Virus record (IMG/VR): IMGVR_UViG_2636415610_000011
Strand: one strand, 5' to 3'
Origin: a virus
Taxonomy: Duplodnaviria > Heunggongvirae > Uroviricota > Caudoviricetes
DNA: 10,389 nt
The position numbers were made by a program, and so were the translations under genes. Positions 1 to 10,389 of this stretch are shown here, piece by piece. A model generated the notes under the pieces. It did not search any database, was not told the DNA's origin, and saw only the letters and a program-made list of their open reading frames with translations. How positions within the stretch are numbered: position 1 is the stretch's first letter; every line of letters begins with the position of its first letter.

Positions 1-1260
1 ATGCCAAAACTCACAGATATGCAGATCCGCGCATGGATAAAGGCGGGAGACAGATTTGATGGCAAGGCAGACGGCAACGGCCTTTATATTTGCTACCCCA
101 AAAACTACACAGTCCCGTTCTGGCGATTCCGCTATAAGCTCGCAGGAAAGCAGCGGGCTATGGTTATAGGCTCTTACTCCGAACTGTCACTATCAAAAGC
201 CAGAGAAACAGCAAAAGAGCTGTCAGCCAGAGTTGCTCTTGGCTATGACGTAGCAGCAGAGAAACAGGAACGAAAAGCTGAAGCACTGGCAAAAATGGAG
301 GCTGAGAAAAACGCCATGCGTGTTTCAGATCTGGCCTCCGAATACTTCGAGCGCCAGATACTTCCGAGATGGAAACATCCCGATATCCTTCGCCGGAGAA
401 TTGATAAGGATATTAACCCCTGCATTGGGCATATGAAGGTAGAGGACGTTAAGCCACGCCACATTGACGACATGTTGAAAGGTATCGTTGACCGAGGAGC
501 ACCAACGATAGCAACAGATGTATTACGCTGGACACGCCGTATCTTTGACTATGGGATAAAACGCCACGCTCTGGAGATAAACCCTTGTTCAGCGTTTGAA
601 GTATCTGATGCTGGTGGTAAAGAGGTTTCCCGCGACCGTTGGCTAACTCGCGATGAGCTTATCAGGCTATTCGAGGCTATGCGCACCGCAAAAGGATTCA
701 GCCGCCAGAACGAACTGACATTTAAGCTATTGCTGGCACTATGCGTTCGTAAGATGGAGTTATGCGCCGCACGATGGGAAGAGTTTGATTTAGATGGTGC
801 GGTATGGCATTTGCCGGAAGAACGCAGCAAAAACGGAGACCCTATTGATATACCTCTACCTTCCCCAGCCGTTGAATGGTTGAGAGAGCTACACACCTTT
901 TCATGTAATAGCGCATGGGTGCTTCCGGCCAGGAAGATGCAAAACAGAATGATCCCACATATTCAGGAAAGCACTTTACCCGTAGCACTGGCTAAGGTTC
1001 GCGCCGAAATGCCGGATGTGCCTAATTTCACGATTCACGACTTCCGACGCACCGCACGTACTCATTTAGCAGCGTTGGGTGTTGATCCTGTTGTGGCGGA
1101 ACGATGCCTCAATCATCGCATTAAGGGCGTAGAGGGGATTTATAACCGCCATCAGTATTTTGATGAGCGTAAAGCAGCACTGGCACAGTGGGCTGATCTG
1201 CTGGTGGCACTGGAAAGCGGAAAAGACTACAACGTAACGCCTCTCAGAAGGGCGAACTAA
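1..1260 (+). CDS. int: Tyrosine site-specific integrase, P4-type (N-terminal arm-binding domain of DUF4102 type plus C-terminal catalytic domain)
   Basis: 419-aa ORF. N-terminus LTDMQIRAWIKAGDRFDGKADGNGLYICYP...WRFRYKLAGKQRAMVIGSYSELSLSKARE matches the arm-binding domain pattern of P4-family integrases. C-terminus carries tyrosine-recombinase catalytic residues (HDFRRTARTHL ... LNHRIKGVEGIYNRHQY). ATG at window position 1, so promoter, attL and any tRNA target lie upstream outside the window. Confidence 0.93.
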   Translation: MPKLTDMQIRAWIKAGDRFDGKADGNGLYICYPKNYTVPFWRFRYKLAGKQRAMVIGSYSELSLSKARETAKELSARVALGYDVAAEKQERKAEALAKMEAEKNAMRVSDLASEYFERQILPRWKHPDILRRRIDKDINPCIGHMKVEDVKPRHIDDMLKGIVDRGAPTIATDVLRWTRRIFDYGIKRHALEINPCSAFEVSDAGGKEVSRDRWLTRDELIRLFEAMRTAKGFSRQNELTFKLLLALCVRKMELCAARWEEFDLDGAVWHLPEERSKNGDPIDIPLPSPAVEWLRELHTFSCNSAWVLPARKMQNRMIPHIQESTLPVALAKVRAEMPDVPNFTIHDFRRTARTHLAALGVDPVVAERCLNHRIKGVEGIYNRHQYFDERKAALAQWADLLVALESGKDYNVTPLRRAN

Positions 1261-2435: not shown

Positions 2436-2639
2436 ATGAACACCGACACTATTCCTACAAAAGGCTATATCAGACGCTTCCGCCTGGCTGAATTGCTGGG
2501 CGTTAGTGTATCCACCATCGACCGTAAAGTAAGAAACGGTTCACTACCACGTCCGGTAAAGCTGGGAGAAAAAATAACTGCGTTTGATGCGGTTGAGATT
2601 CACAACTGGCTGGCAGAACGCCGCGGGAAGGTGGCCTGA
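2436..2639 (+). CDS. alpA: AlpA/Vis-family small HTH transcriptional regulator / excisionase-like protein
   Basis: 67-aa ORF; IRRFRLAELLGVSVSTIDRKVRNGSLPRPVKLGEKITAFDAVEIHNWL is the characteristic AlpA (prophage CP4-57 regulator) / P4 Vis-like MerR-type HTH. Position downstream of a P4-type integrase is typical. Stop overlaps the next start (TGATG). Confidence 0.85.
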   Translation: MNTDTIPTKGYIRRFRLAELLGVSVSTIDRKVRNGSLPRPVKLGEKITAFDAVEIHNWLAERRGKVA

Positions 2640-3070
2640 TGGAAAAGAAAAACCGCCCATTACAGGCGGCTAATTCAGATATTCGCGTATCTGATGTTAC
2701 GCCCCTTACAAAATCCCTTCAAGAACCAAAGCGCACACCGAAAAAGCATCGTGCCAGAGTCTATATGCTGCGTACTGGTATAGAGGGATGGACAGAAAAT
2801 GACATTCTTCGCTACTGCCGTCTGTCTTCTGGTCGTAACTATGCAACAGAGTTAGAACGCCAGCTTGGAATCACTCTGGAGCGTATCGACGAAAAGAATC
2901 CTGATGGTATCGGAACACACCTTCGCTACCGTTTCTCCTGCCGTGGTGATGTTCTGAAAGTGATCACTCATGTTAACCATCTTGCGAACATAAATGATCA
3001 CAACGGACTTTCTCAGCAGGAAATTGCCGACATTCTGAAACTCTACCCGAACGCGTTTAACGCCGCCTAA
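2639..3070 (+). CDS. Hypothetical protein (143 aa), translationally coupled to alpA
   Basis: ATG 2639 overlaps the alpA stop; RBS GGAAGGTGG upstream. Basic N-terminus (KRTPKKHRAR). No family recognised. Confidence 0.7.
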   Translation: MEKKNRPLQAANSDIRVSDVTPLTKSLQEPKRTPKKHRARVYMLRTGIEGWTENDILRYCRLSSGRNYATELERQLGITLERIDEKNPDGIGTHLRYRFSCRGDVLKVITHVNHLANINDHNGLSQQEIADILKLYPNAFNAA

Positions 3071-3082
3071 CGGAGACTGAAA

Positions 3083-3916
3083 ATGAACATCGAAAAAAGC
3101 AGATTAATTTCTGAGGCCGCCCCTCATCTGAACGCCTCTCTGGGCACAATTAACGGTAATGAATTTGCCGCAATTGTCCCGGTTATTCCTGGTCATATCG
3201 GTGGGCGTGAAACCAATATTGTTAGCGCAAAAGCGTTACACAAAGCGTTGGGCGTGGGAAAAGACTTCTCTACATGGATCACTGATCGCATCTCTGAATA
3301 TGACTTCACCATTGGGCACGATTACTCAGTCCATAAAACAATTTCCCCAAATTTGGGGAAAAGCCCGAATGGCACGGCTTACAGCAAGATTAAGCACTCT
3401 GGCAGACCCGGCAAAGACTATCTGTTAAGTGTCGGAATGGCGAAAGAACTGGCAATGATCGAACGCAATGATCAGGGGCGCGCTATCCGCCGTTATTTCA
3501 TCCAGTGCGAGGAAGAATTACAGCGTAGCGTGCCTGAAATCGCCGCCCGCTATCGTCGCCAGCTAAAAGCCCGTATCAGTGCCGCAAACAACTTTAAGCC
3601 AATGTGCGATGCGCTGAATATGGCCCGTGCCGAGATGGGGAAAACGACGCAGCAACACCACTACACAAACGAGAGCAATATGATTTCTCGTATCGTTCTT
3701 GGTGGGCTAACTGCTAAGCAGTGGGCGCGGATAAATGGCTATTCTGGCGAACCTCGCGACCATATGAACGCAGAACAGCTTGAGCACCTCTCATATCTCG
3801 AAAGCACCAATATCACGTTAATTGATATGGGCATGGAATATGAGCAGCGCAAAGGAGAACTCACCCGCCTGTCGCAACGCTGGCTCGCTAAGCGTCTGGA
3901 GGCGGTCCATGTTTAA
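3083..3916 (+). CDS. Phage antirepressor-like protein (AntA/Rha/Bro-N-type N-terminal domain)
   Basis: 277-aa ORF with RBS GGAG (3072-3075). N-terminal region NIVSAKALHKALGVGKDFSTWITDRISEYDF...GRPGKDYLLSVGMAKELAMIERNDQGRAIRRYFIQCEEEL matches the conserved AntA/Rha-type antirepressor DNA-binding domain. C-terminal half not recognised. Confidence 0.8.
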   Translation: MNIEKSRLISEAAPHLNASLGTINGNEFAAIVPVIPGHIGGRETNIVSAKALHKALGVGKDFSTWITDRISEYDFTIGHDYSVHKTISPNLGKSPNGTAYSKIKHSGRPGKDYLLSVGMAKELAMIERNDQGRAIRRYFIQCEEELQRSVPEIAARYRRQLKARISAANNFKPMCDALNMARAEMGKTTQQHHYTNESNMISRIVLGGLTAKQWARINGYSGEPRDHMNAEQLEHLSYLESTNITLIDMGMEYEQRKGELTRLSQRWLAKRLEAVHV

Positions 3917-4091
3917 GCCGACAGGAACACCACAACCTCAAAAACGCTACAAAGATGCCCACGGAGCACTCGTTACTGTCGAAAGCGTGTCTCACAACCG
4001 AGTGACGTTTTATCGCGACGGGTATCAATCGCCATGCGTACAACCGCTGGCACGTTTCATGAAGGAGTTCGCGGAGGTTAACAAATGCTAA
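3909..4091 (+). CDS. Small hypothetical protein (60 aa), possibly DUF4222-like
   Basis: RBS GGAGG (3898-3902) 6 nt before ATG 3909; start overlaps the upstream stop by 8 nt (translational coupling). The ORF track's longer 3822 start lies inside the upstream gene and is rejected. Pattern YKDAHGALVTV...RVTFYRDGYQSPCVQPLARFMKEF resembles small DUF4222-type prophage proteins, from memory only. Confidence 0.6.
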   Translation: MFKPTGTPQPQKRYKDAHGALVTVESVSHNRVTFYRDGYQSPCVQPLARFMKEFAEVNKC

Positions 4092-5152
4092 CCGCCCAGA
4101 AGAAGACATTTTCACTGGCTGGTATGTCGCCAAAATCCAGCAATATGACAGCAAAGTCAGGCATTAATACAGCAGATACAAGCAAAGTTTATCATTTGCT
4201 GGTGGTAGGAGCGGATGCCTTAACTATGTCAGAAATTACGGTCGATGGTGTTAGCGTTGAGAAGGTCAGCGGCTGCGCCAGAGAATTTCTGGTCGTAGAT
4301 GGCTTTCTCTGCTCGCGTAGTGACTCCACAAAAACCTTCGTCCACGCGCGTGACGTTAACGAAATGAGCGCGATGTACTGTGCTTCTGGTTCTTCCAATA
4401 GTGAGTTTTCGGAGTCCATAAAAAAGAGCTTGCCGTTATGCGGCAACACGGTTTATGGTTATAAGGCACCTCATAAAACGGGTGCCGGGATTGGCGTCCT
4501 GGTAAATCGAATGGCGACATATGACGCGCCGAGCGTCTTTTTTTATGTCGTAGGTCTGACTCACCCATTTTTTGGGCGTTGGTGTATAATCCAGCGCCTT
4601 TGTCAATCAATGGTGGCTCAGGCAGGGGCTTCTTCGGAAGCGCCGGTATCCATTCGAGCCGGTTACGCCAACCCTGTCTGGGCTACCACCAGCGAAATTG
4701 GCGTTTCCGGTGGTAGCGTTACATGCTATCGAATGGAGGCTGCCACATGCTGGCTACTACCCCTACCCAAAAACCGCAATTTATCTGGATTATCGCCGCA
4801 GTTCGCCGCGATTGCCCGACAATTACCGCCAAAATTCATCATATTGCTGCCGAGTCTGAACGCGATGCTCGCCGTTCTCTGGTGCGCGATCACGTCTGCT
4901 TTTTTGCTGGTCGTATCCGCATGGAGGTGGCACATGATTAAAACCTACGATGTGCATATGGATCCCCTCGAACGCACAAGCCAGATCATCACACTGACAG
5001 AAGTGATTAACGACATTCTGGTGAGCAACTCTCCCTCACGAGACGAAAGACTGAAGGCGTTACTCGCGATATTGGATCTCGCCGTTCGTGACGTTCATTT
5101 CCTGCTGGAAGGTGGCGAAATGCCAGTAAAAACGGGGGAAACCAATGAATAA
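4085..5152 (+). CDS. Stop-free 355-codon frame; probably a composite: a roughly 222-aa gene (4085 to about 4753) that has lost its stop and reads through in frame into the 4934-5152 gene
   Basis: RBS GGAGG (4071-4075) and ATG 4085 coupled to the upstream stop (ATGCTAA). Codon usage read by eye looks coding from 4085 to about 4745 (G-rich first positions, few rare codons). The same frame over 4745-4933 is full of rare codons (CTA x3, TTA x3, GGA, CGA, ATA, AGG) while the -1 frame there has none. An automated gene caller would probably report the whole ORF as one hypothetical protein. Confidence 0.4.
4747..4941 (+). CDS. Small hypothetical protein (64 aa) in the -1 frame relative to the 4085 ORF
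   Basis: RBS GGAGG (4735-4739) 7 nt before ATG 4747. All codons are common enteric codons (CTG, CGC, CGT, ATC, CCG, GCC; no rare codons). Stop TAA (4939-4941) overlaps the next ATG (4934) in the same 8-nt coupling arrangement used elsewhere in this operon. Alternative start ATG 4723. Confidence 0.5.
   Translation: MLATTPTQKPQFIWIIAAVRRDCPTITAKIHHIAAESERDARRSLVRDHVCFFAGRIRMEVAHD
4934..5152 (+). CDS. Small hypothetical protein (72 aa)
   Basis: RBS GGAGGTGG (4923-4930) just upstream of ATG 4934; coupled to the upstream stop and to the downstream start (ATG 5145 / TAA 5150-5152). In frame with, and contained in, the 4085-5152 ORF. Confidence 0.45.
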   Translation: MIKTYDVHMDPLERTSQIITLTEVINDILVSNSPSRDERLKALLAILDLAVRDVHFLLEGGEMPVKTGETNE

Positions 5153-5817: not shown

Positions 5818-6412
5818 TTTCTTAACTTTCCATGCAGAAGCAACGCCTGACGGCGTAAACATCATGCACCGCAGCAACGATGGCATGACAGAACGCGTTG
5901 AGACCGTCTCATATATTGATGCCGTAAATCGTCTGGATGCCGGGGATTATGACGATAAACCAGATGAAGGCATGTCAATACATCTCGCTATAGCCGATGG
6001 CGGCAACCAGGGATATTTCGATTACACATCACAGCATAACGTCATTATGTGGAGATGGCTGATCGCAACAGTATTCATGCTGGAAATGAGAGAGGAAAAC
6101 GGCACTGTCAGCATCATTGATGATACTGGCAATCCTTCCGAAGTGGCTGTTTATTCCAACGGCATCGTCGCCATGCCGCTGTATCCAGTAGCAGAGCGCC
6201 TCGCTATGGCAAACAACATTGAGGGCGCGATGATAGAACGTTTTGGCATCGAGTCTGGCACAGAACGCGCCATCATTTTCTACAGAGCCATGATGGATGT
6301 GGAACAAGGAGCACTGACTCCATTTGGTCGTGAAACGCTTGCTGAACTTCACAACAGCTTTATAGCTGAACTGAATGAAAACGGCATGCCAGCGGAACCA
6401 GTGACGCACTGA
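5810..6412 (+). CDS. Hypothetical acidic protein (200 aa)
   Basis: ATG 5810 overlaps the upstream stop (ATGAATAA, stop at 5815-5817); RBS AGGCGAGG upstream. The ORF-track start at 5705 lies deep inside the previous gene in another frame and is rejected. Confidence 0.75.
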   Translation: MNNFLTFHAEATPDGVNIMHRSNDGMTERVETVSYIDAVNRLDAGDYDDKPDEGMSIHLAIADGGNQGYFDYTSQHNVIMWRWLIATVFMLEMREENGTVSIIDDTGNPSEVAVYSNGIVAMPLYPVAERLAMANNIEGAMIERFGIESGTERAIIFYRAMMDVEQGALTPFGRETLAELHNSFIAELNENGMPAEPVTH

Positions 6413-6422
6413 GGATGGAGCC

Positions 6423-6764
6423 ATGATTACTAAAAATTTCCGACTGAATGCGCTGGCAAATAAGTATGCGTCGGCACTGTATAACCACATTACCTCCACC
6501 AGCGGCGGGGACTATTTCATGGTTGATGCGGACGGCGAGGCCGTACGTGTGGAAATCGTCAATGGAGTAAAAGACGTTCGCAGCCTGATCGATAGCTACA
6601 CACTGGCAGCCATGAAAGTGTTCTACCCGCAGTGGGAAACCGTGGGGATCGAGCTTCTTGAGCGTTGCGTCACTAAGGACGGATTGACTGACGTCGGGCG
6701 TGAGATATGGCAAAGCATGGTTAATGACATGGGCGCAACTGTAGCGGGAGGTTCTCATGCGTGA
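6423..6764 (+). CDS. Hypothetical protein (113 aa)
   Basis: RBS GGATGGAG (6414-6421) immediately before ATG 6423, which lies 10 nt after the upstream stop. Confidence 0.75.
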   Translation: MITKNFRLNALANKYASALYNHITSTSGGDYFMVDADGEAVRVEIVNGVKDVRSLIDSYTLAAMKVFYPQWETVGIELLERCVTKDGLTDVGREIWQSMVNDMGATVAGGSHA

Positions 6765-7128
6765 AAATGCAGAAATGGCGCTTAGCTCCGCAATCGGAGA
6801 GCAGGTGGCAAAGATTGCTGGTGCTGTGTGGATTCATAACCTTCATTCTACTGGTGAAGAGAAAATGGCAATTCAGACGCCAGAGGGACGCACCATTACT
6901 ACATCTCTGAAGCCGTCAGATGTTTGTGATCTGATTTGCGCATTCATGTACCCAGCAATGAGGACTGTCCACAGCGATAAGTGGAAACTTGCGACAACCG
7001 CTGAATTTGATATGTGGCTAAACAATGATGGCATGCTGACTGATTACGGAATAACCAAGTGGCAGATGCTGGTTAGCCATATCGCAAACGCTATAGACCA
7101 CGTGGGGTACGGTGATGCGAAACATTGA
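6757..7128 (+). CDS. Hypothetical protein (123 aa), immediately upstream of and coupled to the primase-helicase
   Basis: ATG 6757 overlaps the upstream stop by 8 nt; its own stop (7126-7128) overlaps the primase start. Confidence 0.75.
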   Translation: MRENAEMALSSAIGEQVAKIAGAVWIHNLHSTGEEKMAIQTPEGRTITTSLKPSDVCDLICAFMYPAMRTVHSDKWKLATTAEFDMWLNNDGMLTDYGITKWQMLVSHIANAIDHVGYGDAKH

Positions 7129-9871
7129 TCTTATCCGTCAGGTTATCAGTGCGTCTGAAAACAACTGGCCTCATGTGCTGGGCTGCCTGAACATAAATGT
7201 CCCTGACTCTCCGCGCCGTCATGCTCCCTGCCCTGCATGTGGGGGCAAAGATCGATTCCGGTTCGATGACAACGGGCGCGGTAGCTTCATCTGTAATCAG
7301 TGCGGCGCTGGTGATGGGCTGGATTTAATTAAACGCGTAAATAACTGCGACACAACAGAGGCGGCGCTTCTTGCCGCTGATGTTCTGGGTATTGATTACC
7401 GGACAACGGAAACACCAGAAGCCACCAGCCAGAAACGGGAACAACTGGAAACCGAGCGCCAGCGACGCGAACAGGAGCGCCTGAAAAGGGCAGAGAAGGA
7501 CGAACAACAAAGACGGGATACGTTTTCCCGTCAGTTTGATGACATGCGCAGAAAGGCTGTAAACGGCAAATCTGATTATCTGGTTGCGAAAGGGGTAGGT
7601 GATTTTACATTCCCCGTGTTGCCCGATGGATCTCTGTTGCTGGCGCTGGTGGATAAATCCGGCGCAGTCACAGCAGCACAGACTATTACCTCACATGGTG
7701 AAAAAAGACTCCTGAGAGGTTCAGCAAAGCGGGGGGCATATCACGCCATAAACGCGCCAGAAACAACACAGAGCATCTTAATTACAGAAGGGCTGGCAAC
7801 GGCATTATCTGCCCATTTAATTCGTCCAGAGGCGCTGACAGTGGCGGCGATTGATGCCGGGAACCTGTTATATGTCGCCCAGGTACTGCGGGATAAATTT
7901 CCTTCAGCACAAATCATCATTGCTGCGGATAACGACCACAGCGAAGGAAGACAAAACACGGGGAGAATAGCAGCAGAAAAAGCAGCTTTATCTGTTTCTG
8001 GATGGGTGGCATTACCCCCGACAGATCACAAAGCAGACTGGAATGATTACCACCAAAAACACGGCATTAAATGCGCCACAGAAGCGTTCAATAAGTCAAT
8101 GTACCAACCACAGGGTAATGGCGTGAAACAGGAGCCACAGACCATTGAGGGAAGCGATTTTAAGGTTATGGATACCGACCCACTGAAACCAAGAATAGAA
8201 AGCCGCGAGGATGGTATTTATTGGGTATCTCCGAGAGCTGACAGCCAGAGTGGAGAAATCATCAATAACGAAAGCTGGTTATGTTCTCCGTTAAGCGTTA
8301 TCGGTACTGGCAGAGACGATAAAGACCAGTATCTCATTCTTCGCTGGCTGTCGTTTGGTTCTGAAACGCCGACAACCGCTGCCATTCCACTGGCTGATAT
8401 TGGTGAACGTGAAGGATGGCGCACACTTAAAGCTGGTGGGGTAAATGTCACGACCAAAAGCAGCCTCAGAGCAATACTGGCAGACTGGCTACAACGCAGT
8501 GGCTCTCGTGAATTGTGGCGTGTTGCTCATGCCACTGGCTGGCAATGCGGAGCGTACATCATGCCTGATGGGGAAATCATCGGAACACCTGAAAATCCTG
8601 TGCTGTTCAGCGGGAGAAGCTCAGCCGCAGCCGGATATACCGTCTCAGGGAGCGCGAAAAGCTGGCGTGATAACGTGGCGCGTCTGGCCTTTGGTAACTA
8701 TTCAATGATGACCGGGATCGGCGCAGCACTGGCAGCGCCATTGATTGGGCTGGTGGGCGCTGACGGGTTCGGCATTCATTTCTATGAGCAGTCGAGCGCA
8801 GGTAAGACCACCACGGCAAACGTGGCGAGCAGCTTATACGGCAACCCTGATTTACTGCGGCTGACGTGGTACGGAACCGCGCTGGGGCTGGCAAATGAGG
8901 CCGCCGCCCACAATGACGGACTAATGCCGCTTGATGAAGTTGGTCAGGGCGCTGATCCTGTCAGCGTTTCACAGTCTGCCTATGCGTTATTTAACGGTGT
9001 AGGGAAACTGCAAGGCGCTAAAGATGGTGGAAACCGGGATCTAAAACGCTGGCGTACAGTGGCAATCAGCACCGGAGAAATGGATTTAGAAACATTTATC
9101 GCTACTTCCGGGCGAAAAACCAAAGCCGGGCAACTGGTGCGACTGCTGAATATTCCGTTGAGTAAAGCAGTACGCTTTCACGATTACCAGAACGGAAAAC
9201 AGCACGCAGACGCACTGAAAGACGCTTACCAGCATCACCACGGCGCGTCCGGGCGTGAGTGGATTAAATGGCTGGCAGACCACCAGCAACAGGCTATTAA
9301 AACCGTTCGTGACTGCGAAAGCAGATGGAGAAGCCTGATCCCATCCGATTATGGTGAGCAGGTTCACCGTGTAGCCGCGCGATTTGCCATTCTGGAGGCC
9401 GCATTGTTGTTAGGCGAGGTTGTAACAGGCTGGGATGCTCAGACATGCCGTGATGCGATACAGCACAGCTATAACGCATGGTTGCGCGAGTTCGGCACAG
9501 GTAACAAAGAGCATCAGCAGATTATTGAACAAACGGAGGCATTTCTTAATGCCTATGGGCTTAGCCGTTTTGCACCATTTCCATACAGCCCGGCAGATTT
9601 GCCCATCAAAGATTTAGCCGGATACCGTCAGCGTGGAGAACATGACGAAAGCCCAATGATTTTCTACACATTCCCGGCCACATTTGAAAAGGAGATCGCA
9701 TGTGGTTTCAACGCAAAACAGTTTGCTGAAGTGTTGAAAAAAGCCGGGATGCTAACCCCACCAAACAGCGGTCGTGGATACCAAAGAAAATCACCACGTA
9801 TTCAGGGACGACAAATAAACGTTTATGTACTCAATTACCAGCCAGGAGATTATAACTCATCTGAAGAATGA
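7115..9871 (+). CDS. Primase-helicase of the phage P4 alpha type (N-terminal Zn-ribbon, Toprim primase core, C-terminal P-loop NTPase/helicase-like domain)
   Basis: About 918 aa. Zn-ribbon CPACGGKDRFRFDD...GSFICNQCG; Toprim signatures ITEGLATAL (conserved Glu) and IIIAADNDHSEG (DxD); Walker-A-like FYEQSSAGKTTTA in the C-terminal domain. ATG 7115 preferred; GTG 7112 (ORF-track start) is an alternative. Confidence 0.93.
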   Translation: MRNIDLIRQVISASENNWPHVLGCLNINVPDSPRRHAPCPACGGKDRFRFDDNGRGSFICNQCGAGDGLDLIKRVNNCDTTEAALLAADVLGIDYRTTETPEATSQKREQLETERQRREQERLKRAEKDEQQRRDTFSRQFDDMRRKAVNGKSDYLVAKGVGDFTFPVLPDGSLLLALVDKSGAVTAAQTITSHGEKRLLRGSAKRGAYHAINAPETTQSILITEGLATALSAHLIRPEALTVAAIDAGNLLYVAQVLRDKFPSAQIIIAADNDHSEGRQNTGRIAAEKAALSVSGWVALPPTDHKADWNDYHQKHGIKCATEAFNKSMYQPQGNGVKQEPQTIEGSDFKVMDTDPLKPRIESREDGIYWVSPRADSQSGEIINNESWLCSPLSVIGTGRDDKDQYLILRWLSFGSETPTTAAIPLADIGEREGWRTLKAGGVNVTTKSSLRAILADWLQRSGSRELWRVAHATGWQCGAYIMPDGEIIGTPENPVLFSGRSSAAAGYTVSGSAKSWRDNVARLAFGNYSMMTGIGAALAAPLIGLVGADGFGIHFYEQSSAGKTTTANVASSLYGNPDLLRLTWYGTALGLANEAAAHNDGLMPLDEVGQGADPVSVSQSAYALFNGVGKLQGAKDGGNRDLKRWRTVAISTGEMDLETFIATSGRKTKAGQLVRLLNIPLSKAVRFHDYQNGKQHADALKDAYQHHHGASGREWIKWLADHQQQAIKTVRDCESRWRSLIPSDYGEQVHRVAARFAILEAALLLGEVVTGWDAQTCRDAIQHSYNAWLREFGTGNKEHQQIIEQTEAFLNAYGLSRFAPFPYSPADLPIKDLAGYRQRGEHDESPMIFYTFPATFEKEIACGFNAKQFAEVLKKAGMLTPPNSGRGYQRKSPRIQGRQINVYVLNYQPGDYNSSEE

Positions 9872-9896
9872 GCTTCTTCATGTGCGTAGAAAAGGT

Positions 9897-10007
9897 GTTG
9901 GTTCAGTTGGTTCAGTTGGTTCAATTTGTAAAGAGTATTGTTTTATAAGGATTTTATTCTTTTTATTGAACCAACACTGAACCAACAACACGGTATTTTG
10001 AACCAAC
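9897..10007. repeat. Iteron array: putative replication origin of the island
   Basis: Three perfect tandem GTTGGTTCA (9897-9905, 9906-9914, 9915-9923), then a 43-bp strongly AT-rich tract (9924-9966), then three inverted copies TGAACCAAC (9967-9975, 9978-9986, 9999-10007) spaced 11 and 21 bp (helical phasing). Lies 26 bp downstream of the primase-helicase stop. Confidence 0.6.
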
Positions 10008-10098
10008 ACAATGTGACTGAATTGATGCGCACAACACCTGGCTGGCATCAGAGAGTGTTTTACGAGACTTTCGTAAAATCCTGTGTACAAGGGCGTGA

Positions 10099-10389
10099 TG
10101 AACCGCCCCGGGTTTCCTGGAGAGTGTTTTATCTGTGAACTCAGGCTGCCAGATCATCGTTTCCGATGGAAGCATAATAAGCTTTTTCTGCTTCTGCCGG
10201 TGGGATATGGCCCAGCCTTTCCAGCAATCGTCGATTGTTATACCAGTCCACCCACGTGAGTGTGGCCAGCTCCACTTCTGTCCGGTTTTTCCAGCTCTTA
10301 CGGTGTATTACCTCCGCTTTGTAAAGGCCATTGATGCTCTCCGCCATCGCGTTGTCATACGAGTCACCAGTACTTCCTGTTGATGCCAG
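10099..10389 (-). mobile_element. IS3-family insertion sequence terminus (IS629/IS1203-like), partial, continues beyond the window
   Basis: Terminal sequence TGAACCGCCCCGGG... begins at 10099 (5'-TG end typical of IS3 family) and precedes the 3' end of an rve-type transposase on the - strand. Assignment to IS629 is from memory of its terminal sequence, not a search. Confidence 0.8.
10141..10389 (-). CDS. IS3-family transposase (OrfB, DDE/rve integrase core), C-terminal fragment; 5' end outside window
   Basis: Reverse-strand translation ...LASTGSTGDSYDNAMAESINGLYKAEVIHRKSWKNRTEVELATLTWVDWYNNRRLLERLGHIPPAEAEKAYY... contains the conserved rve C-terminal motif (DSYDNAMAES). Stop at 10141-10143; the frame is open to the window edge. 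Confidence 0.85.
   Translation of the reverse strand: MASTGSTGDSYDNAMAESINGLYKAEVIHRKSWKNRTEVELATLTWVDWYNNRRLLERLGHIPPAEAEKAYYASIGNDDLAA

Follow-up and report, generated by a model that had tools for sequence, protein, structure and literature searches.

A candidate replication-origin module beside the primase-helicase gene of an EcCIMP1-type phage-inducible chromosomal island

In the Staphylococcus aureus pathogenicity islands (SaPIs), the replication origin lies immediately downstream of rep and consists of 6-12 iterons in opposed sets with an AT-rich centre, and the SaPI Reps, together with Cch, are self-loading hexameric helicases whose C-terminal winged helix reads the iterons (PMC9371898). 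Origins of Gram-negative phage-inducible chromosomal islands (PICIs) also place two iteron sets on either side of an AT-rich region just 3' of pri-rep, and that of EcCICFT073 has been tested by plasmid maintenance (Fillol-Salom et al. 2018, PMC6092414). Here we examine a virus record of IMG/VR, IMGVR_UViG_2636415610_000011, which holds an EcCIMP1-type PICI at tRNA-Thr and, directly behind its pri-rep gene, an array of short repeats. The whole stretch of DNA analysed (the window) is 10,389 nucleotides (nt) long with an overall GC content of 48.5%, and coordinates refer to it unless another locus is named. We conclude, at a probability of about 0.8, that the array (~9876-10047) is the Pri-Rep-proximal module of a PICI/SaPI-type replication origin, a reading built on sequence comparison and on analogy with the systems above. 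The origin layout is already known for PICIs; the EcCIMP1-type initiator family and its origin are undescribed in the literature that we found. A literature search with the iteron strings returned irrelevant matches only, and no description of an EcCIMP1-family origin was found, with the limit that the iteron sequences in Fig. 2a of PMC6092414 form an unreadable image in which a relative is possibly drawn.

The array and its predicted initiator beside the described systems

The array consists of three tandem copies of GTTGGTTCA and three copies of its reverse complement, TGAACCAAC, separated by an AT-rich spacer that we presume to be the DNA-unwinding element (Table 1). These repeats are real and far beyond chance. 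The six exact copies found in the 10,389 bases all lie in the array, about 0.08 copies being expected by arithmetic from length alone, and in 200 shuffles the number of matches with one mismatch at most never came up to the observed one. The spacer is the lowest-GC 43-mer of the entire window. The array begins 25 nt past the pri-rep stop codon (9869-9871), in the position immediately 3' of pri-rep that PICI and SaPI origins occupy. With three iterons on each side, it also falls within the pattern that we drew from PMC9371898 and PMC6092414, namely at least two iterons on each side of an AT-rich region and 6-12 in total.

A preliminary description of this DNA had reported three direct and three inverted 9-bp repeats around a 43-bp AT-rich tract, and all its coordinates are confirmed. 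The helical phasing that it also reported holds for the right set (11 and 21 bp) but not for the left set, which is contiguous at 9 bp. In strain MP1, the source of EcCIMP1, the right set is spaced 21/21 rather than 11/21 (L081, 11270-11400). The difference is a 10-nt insertion in the right set, so that the spacing stays near whole helical turns. The description further pointed to a 7-bp inverted repeat across the stop codon (TGAAGAA/TTCTTCA, 9862-9868 and 9874-9880). This repeat is present, but its fold has no advantage over shuffled sequence (z = -0.26; 68 of 200 shuffles did equally well), and we rejected the hairpin as a terminator or regulatory element because its fold is at shuffle level and no terminator was called there.

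The repeats might instead be fortuitous, or belong to the insertion sequence (IS) whose end lies close by, and the terminal inverted repeat of this IS, at 10099, does begin with TGAACC, the six bases that open the inverted iteron. This explanation is contradicted by the shuffles, by the identity of the array in hundreds of E. coli genomes without an IS here, and by conservation of the array across genera, and we regard its likelihood as close to nil. An IS-associated origin of the array was rejected: the IS begins only at 10099, and strains without an IS here carry an intact array.

Three non-iteron motifs are kept across iteron classes: a CACATG box after the stop codon, a TTTATAAGG spacer core and a CTGGCTGG box. 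The box after the stop codon is a palindromic CTCACATGTGAG in some relatives, and the spacer motif TTGnTTTATAAGGnTTTT is conserved across all iteron classes; the three motifs could be host-factor sites, a primase start or something else. Allowing one mismatch at most, no DnaA box was found within ~1.9 kb of the array, and no integration host factor (IHF) consensus anywhere in the window, which fits a self-loading initiator. An Rfam scan placed no known RNA family in the iteron region, all its matches falling elsewhere in the window.

Such an initiator appears to be encoded directly upstream. The Pri-Rep protein comprises a Zn-ribbon and Toprim primase (residues ~8-362), a DUF927 helicase core (~366-814) and a C-terminal domain, and phrog_1139 covers its full length. 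Residues 8-362 share 32% identity with the primase domain of P4 alpha (E 2e-41), and no alignment between the two proteins extends beyond residue 362. Residues 403-814 match the SaPIbov1 Rep structure 8tch (E 1.4e-11); Cch of the staphylococcal cassette chromosome mec (SCCmec; 5dgk) is a weaker match to the helicase, and the NCBIfam Cch1 model matches at E 1.5e-9. By this homology Pri-Rep would be a Rep-type self-loading helicase. A profile search of the C-terminal domain against the PDB returned nothing for the last 100 residues, the matches ending at ~814. An AlphaFold (AF2) model of the last 160 residues is moderate, with a predicted local distance difference test (pLDDT) score of 62, and shows a terminal strand-helix-helix-strand-loop-strand unit. 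The top Foldseek matches of this model are the winged-helix, oriT-binding protein TcpK (E 0.03, probability 1.0, 60 residues) and 8tch (E 0.05). The motif GRGYQRKSPRI (residues ~887-897) is, on this model, probably the wing of a winged helix. Among GenBank phage records we found no full-length Pri-Rep relative.

Carrying over the work on SaPI Rep and Cch, we infer binding, melting, self-loading and initiation at the array. Upon induction of the island by a helper phage, the AlpA-controlled rightward operon would express Pri-Rep, in which a Zn-ribbon/Toprim primase like that of P4 alpha is joined to a predicted hexameric helicase of the SaPIbov1-Rep/Cch type (DUF927) and to a C-terminal domain predicted to bind DNA. 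This last domain, whose fold is probably a winged helix with the GRGYQRKSPRI wing, would read the 9-bp iterons, and complexes on the two opposed iteron sets would melt the 43-nt spacer between them. The helicase would then load itself on each side, needing neither DnaA nor a separate loader, and the built-in primase would prime synthesis by the host polymerase.

The closest described counterparts are the SaPI origins with their Rep or Pri-Rep initiator helicases (SaPIbov1, SaPI1, SaPI5), together with the SCCmec Cch helicase: the origin also lies 3' of the initiator gene with opposed short iterons and an AT-rich centre, the helicase core of SaPIbov1 Rep and Cch is homologous to that of Pri-Rep, and the primase is fused or adjacent. 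The present locus differs from the SaPIs in its Gram-negative host, in its 9-bp iterons (5-6 bp in SaPIs), in its P4-alpha Toprim-type primase domain, in the last 100 residues of Pri-Rep, which show no sequence match with the C-terminal domain of SaPI Rep, and in a second, inverted module that complete EcCIMP1-type islands possess. EcCICFT073 shares both the island type (int, alpA, a unidirectional operon, pri-rep and origin) and the origin layout; in contrast, its repeats are TCTACC and its initiator is a D5_N/DUF5906/Pox_D5 protein without detectable similarity to Pri-Rep. The reference PICIs EcCIRM13514 and EcCI042 have initiators other than a Toprim-DUF927 Pri-Rep, and the three of the four E. 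coli initiator types of PMC6092414 that we checked are all different proteins from the one described here.

The satellite phage P4 resembles the locus in its three-part initiator (primase, helicase and C-terminal DNA-binding domain), with a homologous primase, in a repeat-bearing cis element directly downstream of the initiator gene (crr), and in having two sites kilobases apart. Pri-Rep is nevertheless not alpha-type throughout, since its helicase is of the DUF927/Cch type and not D5-like superfamily 3 (SF3). P4 ori and crr differ in structure, whereas in EcCIMP1-type islands the distal module nearly duplicates the proximal one in inverted orientation. The position of the array right after its initiator, which the preliminary description likened to satellite and PICI origins, is that of PICI and SaPI origins; for P4 the nearest positional feature is crr and not ori. 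That the iteron differs from the P4 repeat was stated correctly: P4 carries 11 exact copies of its type I repeat TGTTCACC, as given there, and this repeat is unrelated to GTTGGTTCA.

Iteron origins of the plasmids pSC101, R6K, RK2 and P1 have repeats of 17-22 bp in one orientation and depend on DnaA boxes, IHF and host DnaB/DnaC. As in those plasmids, an initiator coded beside the origin is here predicted to bind repeats next to an AT-rich unwinding element. The array is not of the plasmid type, however, in that its repeats are 9 bp long, its sets are opposed, it lacks a DnaA box and an IHF consensus, and its initiator is itself a helicase-primase.

Conservation of the array and co-variation with the Pri-Rep C-terminus

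To see how far this layout extends, we scanned one genome per species and found 77 loci that encode Pri-Rep relatives, in 63 of which the C-terminus and the downstream DNA are readable. An array lies 22-48 nt past the pri-rep stop in 59 of these 63, with at least four copies in 57. The array-bearing relatives belong to many genera of Enterobacterales, with one Desulfohalobiaceae metagenome-assembled genome (MAG) in addition. The layout is constant: 2-7 tandem copies at a pitch of 8-9 bp, an AT-rich spacer of ~45-52 nt, and inverted copies, which are spaced 11 and 21 nt apart in most relatives, other iteron classes included. The iteron sequence itself falls into at least eight classes. Most loci, the present one among them, carry GTTGGTTCA (class A); the other classes are GTTGTCTCA (class B), ACGGGTTA, GTCGGTTCA, GTCGGGTA, GTGGGTTA, TTATCCCA and CAGGGGC, the last in the Desulfohalobiaceae MAG, whose Pri-Rep shows a protein identity of only 30%. 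Within any one locus all iteron copies change together. A layout that stays fixed while its sequence shifts in concert is the picture of a binding-site array for a co-evolving protein. The preliminary proposal of a satellite/PICI-type origin, with iterons and an unwinding element served by the upstream primase-helicase, gains support from this recurrent layout, from the Rep/Cch homology, and from the origins described in PMC6092414 and PMC9371898.

A search of IMG/VR by the class-A array alone gave 119 stretches, of which 80 were fetched. In 70 of the 80 a Pri-Rep C-terminus ends 28-59 nt upstream of the array; three more are too near the locus end to judge. Among the seven others, L141 carries pri-rep, with the matched stretch beyond its stop, and L113 runs off the locus. 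A P22-like ejection module, which comes next in E. coli, accompanies only 1-2 of 54 relatives, and the small downstream open reading frame (ORF) is nearly identical between one class-C locus and one class-D locus. Thus the array travels with pri-rep and not with the downstream genes. A link between the array and the ejection module was rejected on these counts, as was the small downstream 53-amino-acid ORF as the reader of the iterons, its distance from the array being variable and its sequence near-identical between those two loci. Elsewhere among the relatives, a Serratia locus (L058, 6700-6780) has a GC-rich hairpin after the pri-rep stop with the next gene directly behind, and an Oceanospirillum locus (L069) has a GTGTGTAA cluster ~2.3 kb upstream of pri-rep instead.

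The part of Pri-Rep that goes with the iteron class was sought in an alignment of 50 full-length proteins, as columns invariant in the 33 class-A members and different in every member of another class. All five columns that discriminate class B lie within 821-904 (824 and 892-895), as do all 12 that discriminate class C. The stretch 815-905 contains just 41 of the 355 columns that are invariant in class A, which gives hypergeometric p values of 1.6e-5 for class B and 1.1e-12 for class C. The motif [G/D/N/K]RG[YF]QRKSPR is present in 33 of 33 class-A proteins; class B reads GRGYQGRV-RE, and classes C, D and E carry other versions of the QRKSPR motif. Iteron class thus appears, by comparison, to track a patch at residues ~820-905. 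The distinct initiator specificity that had been surmised for this iteron is consistent with such co-variation, and the proposed check for co-varying iterons among related primase-helicases turned them up.

Between a class-A and a class-B protein (L013 and L010), identity runs mostly at 86-100% through the first ~800 residues, with 76-78% over 251-400; past ~800 it falls to 66-68%, with 26% at the very C-terminal end. This drop points to a C-terminal domain and an array that were exchanged together. As a separate observation, a Cedecea davisae locus (L060, 6856-7190) has a class-A first module followed by a decayed second module with the class-B-like remnants GTTGCCTCA and AGAGACAAC, which suggests past recombination between specificity classes.

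A second module and the alternative roles of the array

The array is not alone in its island. In L097, L109, L124, L137 and L144 it stands in mirror orientation immediately upstream of perC, with no pri-rep nearby, and complete EcCIMP1-type islands hold both modules, the second lying beside perC, 5.4-8.5 kb downstream of the first. Read in the opposite orientation, the distal module nearly repeats the proximal one, with identity over the stretch formed by AAAAGGT, the tandem triple and ATTTGTAAAGAG, and it is flanked, in inverted orientation, by CTGGCTGA, which resembles the CCTGGCTGGCA box. The two modules bracket 5.4-8.5 kb of cargo that includes P22-like ejection genes. Many other genera join the modules directly, so that 12 iterons fall within ~280 bp around a central CTGGCTGGC box; further relatives place them 0.4-2.2 kb apart; and many relatives show a single six-iteron module within the 4-kb flank. 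The present window contains the proximal module and the CCTGGCTGGCA box only, the remainder being cut off by the IS and by the end of the stretch.

Taken together, these layouts lead us to a tentative proposal, to which we would give a little less than an even chance: the Toprim-DUF927 Pri-Rep family of Enterobacterales PICIs would use a two-module origin. In this proposal, each module would consist of a tandem triple, an AT-rich core, a spaced triple and a CTGGCTGG box. The modules would form a contiguous near-palindrome of ~280 bp with 12 iterons in some lineages and be separated by 0.4-8.5 kb of inserted cargo in others, so that in EcCIMP1-type islands two inverted origin copies would bracket the P22-like ejection cargo. 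At least eight initiator/iteron specificity groups would have arisen via swaps of a ~100-codon module together with the origin.

The second module also bears on what the first one does. The array might be a cis-acting replication enhancer like P4 crr, bound by Pri-Rep while synthesis starts at the distal module by perC or elsewhere. In P4, crr follows alpha directly, the annotated ori is found at the opposite flank of the gene, ~2.1 kb beyond the alpha start, and both carry repeats bound by alpha; two modules 5.4-8.5 kb apart would fit such a division of labour, as would the alpha-like primase domain of Pri-Rep. Module 1 alone, however, has the full origin anatomy, matching SaPI/PICI origins immediately 3' of rep, module 2 is a near-copy of it rather than another kind of element, and many relatives have a single module of six iterons in the 4-kb flank. 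We consider the enhancer role improbable, although it is the main rival of the origin reading.

Initiators of iteron plasmids often regulate their own genes, and in both the relatives and the distal module a conserved TTTTGCTTATnTATA(AT) adjoins the outer tandem triple directly upstream of perC. The array could accordingly be read as mainly a transcriptional operator through which Pri-Rep or another island protein regulates the downstream operon. A consensus scan found no sigma-70 promoter at either the proximal or the distal module, however, and no gene starts within 90 nt after the array in this window. The small DNA-binding-like downstream ORF does not co-vary with the iteron class, and the conserved AT-rich centre and the opposed sets would be left unexplained. 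As the principal role, an operator is less probable still than an enhancer; it could be a second function alongside an origin, and then it would not be a true rival.

A further reading is a packaging (pac) site for the terminase of a P22-like helper, on the model of phage P1, whose pac cut site is flanked by short repeats. An island has to be packaged, and Kapi1, the helper of EcCIMP1, is reported to be a P22-like, headful-packaging phage (PMC11773190). Yet the repeat sequence follows the Pri-Rep C-terminus and no packaging gene, the P22-like module is missing from nearly all relatives that keep the array, no terminase gene lies beside the array, and, read directly, the array contains no GATC. 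A packaging role is accordingly very unlikely. Both alternatives that the preliminary description had named for itself, an IS-flanking and a packaging sequence, are thus contradicted.

Several points weigh against the array as an origin module. The inverted module 5.4-8.5 kb away leaves room for the proximal one being auxiliary: it might be a crr-like element. In four of the 63 readable relatives (L051, L058, L065 and L069) no array follows the stop codon. The C-terminal patch is coded directly beside the array, so that the two may in part be inherited jointly, and the co-variation could partly reflect one recombination block and not recognition. The C-terminal model is only moderate and its winged-helix matches are weak (E 0.03-0.05), which makes the winged-helix assignment tentative. 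The paper on EcCIMP1 does not address the replication or the origin of the island (PMC11773190). Finally, the IS 91 nt downstream may have disabled the island in its strain of origin. Despite these points we retain the origin-module reading at the probability given above. The preliminary description had taken the array for the origin as such; an origin-type module is what our analysis supports, but it is merely the proximal one of two in complete islands.

The island, its neighbouring genes and implications

The window carries the PICI gene set int, alpA, antA, ash and pri-rep, all on the + strand, as expected of a PICI (Table 1). The region is also present in 365 of 5,426 complete E. coli genomes, where it sits at tRNA-Thr between proA and the vat island, and the island is near-identical to EcCIMP1 of strain MP1, origin region included. 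EcCIMP1 excises, and phage Kapi1 induces and transduces it (PMC11773190). In the window, the IS interrupts the island 91 nt past the last iteron. Other E. coli strains match up to 10098 only and then run on without the IS, and among the matches listed from the 5,426 genomes there is no occurrence of an IS at the same position. A 12-mer, GAGAGTGTTTTA, is common to the IS (10120) and to island sequence (10051).

Table 1. Features of the window and positions of the two modules in related islands
Feature	Position	Strand	Basis or remark
pri-rep gene, 919 amino acids, preceded by small ORFs	7112..9871	+	ORF/domain calls; Pfam Zn_Ribbon_Prim, Toprim_3, DUF927
Coding region of putative iteron-specificity patch (Pri-Rep ~816-905; motif GRGYQRKSPRI)	9557..9826	+	class-discriminating columns
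Conserved non-iteron box, consensus tCACATGcG, partly palindromic in relatives	9876..9889	+	alignment of 37 loci
Left iteron set: 3 x GTTGGTTCA, tandem, 9-bp pitch	9897-9905, 9906-9914, 9915-9923	+	exact match; pitch and position same in relatives of every class
AT-rich spacer, presumed DNA-unwinding element	9924..9966	.	43 nt, 16.3% GC
Conserved spacer core TTGnTTTATAAGGnTTTTnTTT	~9938-9963		kept across iteron classes (alignment of 37 loci)
Right iteron set: 3 x TGAACCAAC on + strand (inverted iteron)	9967-9975, 9978-9986, 9999-10007	-	start-to-start 11 and 21
Conserved box CCTGGCTGGCA, ~30 nt beyond last iteron	10037..10047	+	centre between modules in 12-iteron relatives
Integrase	1-1260	+	ORF/domain calls
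alpA	2436-2639	+	ORF/domain calls
AntA antirepressor	3083-3916	+	ORF/domain calls
Ash-family ORF	4085-5152	+	ORF/domain calls
End of IS3-family insertion sequence	10099..10389	-	strain matches; minus-strand ORF with rve_3/rve_2; outside origin
ABU 83972 (L001), module 1 and module 2	12198-12308 and 20657-20756		coordinates of that locus
L002, module 1 and module 2	6198-6308 and 11676-11796		coordinates of that locus
MP1 (L081), module 1 and module 2	11276-11396 and 2736-2856		coordinates of that locus

Several neighbouring features stand apart from the array. Inside the Ash-family ORF, Rfam matches to isrK (67 bits, 4466-4543, + strand) and to the C4 antisense RNA (79.5 bits, 4606-4693, + strand) correspond to P4-type CI RNA/seqA immunity elements, which are already known from some Gram-negative PICIs. 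Directly 3' of the integrase stop codon is a match to the int-alpA RNA motif (60.6 bits, 1269-1335, + strand). Between int and alpA, an interval where accessory or defence genes are frequent in PICIs, lies an ORF of 321 amino acids (1356-2321, + strand) that matches nothing in Pfam or PHROG and gives just a weak PADLOC hit (PDC-S31, E 0.002). The same gap measures only ~430 nt in ABU 83972 and MP1, so this ORF is an extra gene. An ORF of 113 amino acids (phrog_37628; 6423-6764, + strand) is intact here; in ABU 83972 an internal stop interrupts the corresponding gene, which is annotated there as a pseudogene.

If the two-module proposal is true, satellites residing in one cell would be kept from cross-talk during replication by their different specificity groups, the intervening gap would act as a hotspot of cargo insertion, and the inverted copies could promote cargo inversion or a P4-like looping that brings the sites together. 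The two-module layout, with its cargo in between, gives a lead on how islands acquire genes.

As a result of this analysis, the EcCIMP1 family of PICIs, which resides beside the vat island in several hundred complete E. coli genomes, gains a candidate replicon that comprises an initiator, an iteron, an unwinding element and a predicted specificity patch. The natural switch from class A to class B, in which GTTGGTTCA becomes GTTGTCTCA as QRKSPRI becomes QGRV-RE, offers a direct test of how a helicase-initiator would read its origin. The specificity classes also provide a way to type satellites and to predict which of them are able to coexist in one cell. These results leave the general picture of PICI replication unchanged and extend it to a new initiator family.

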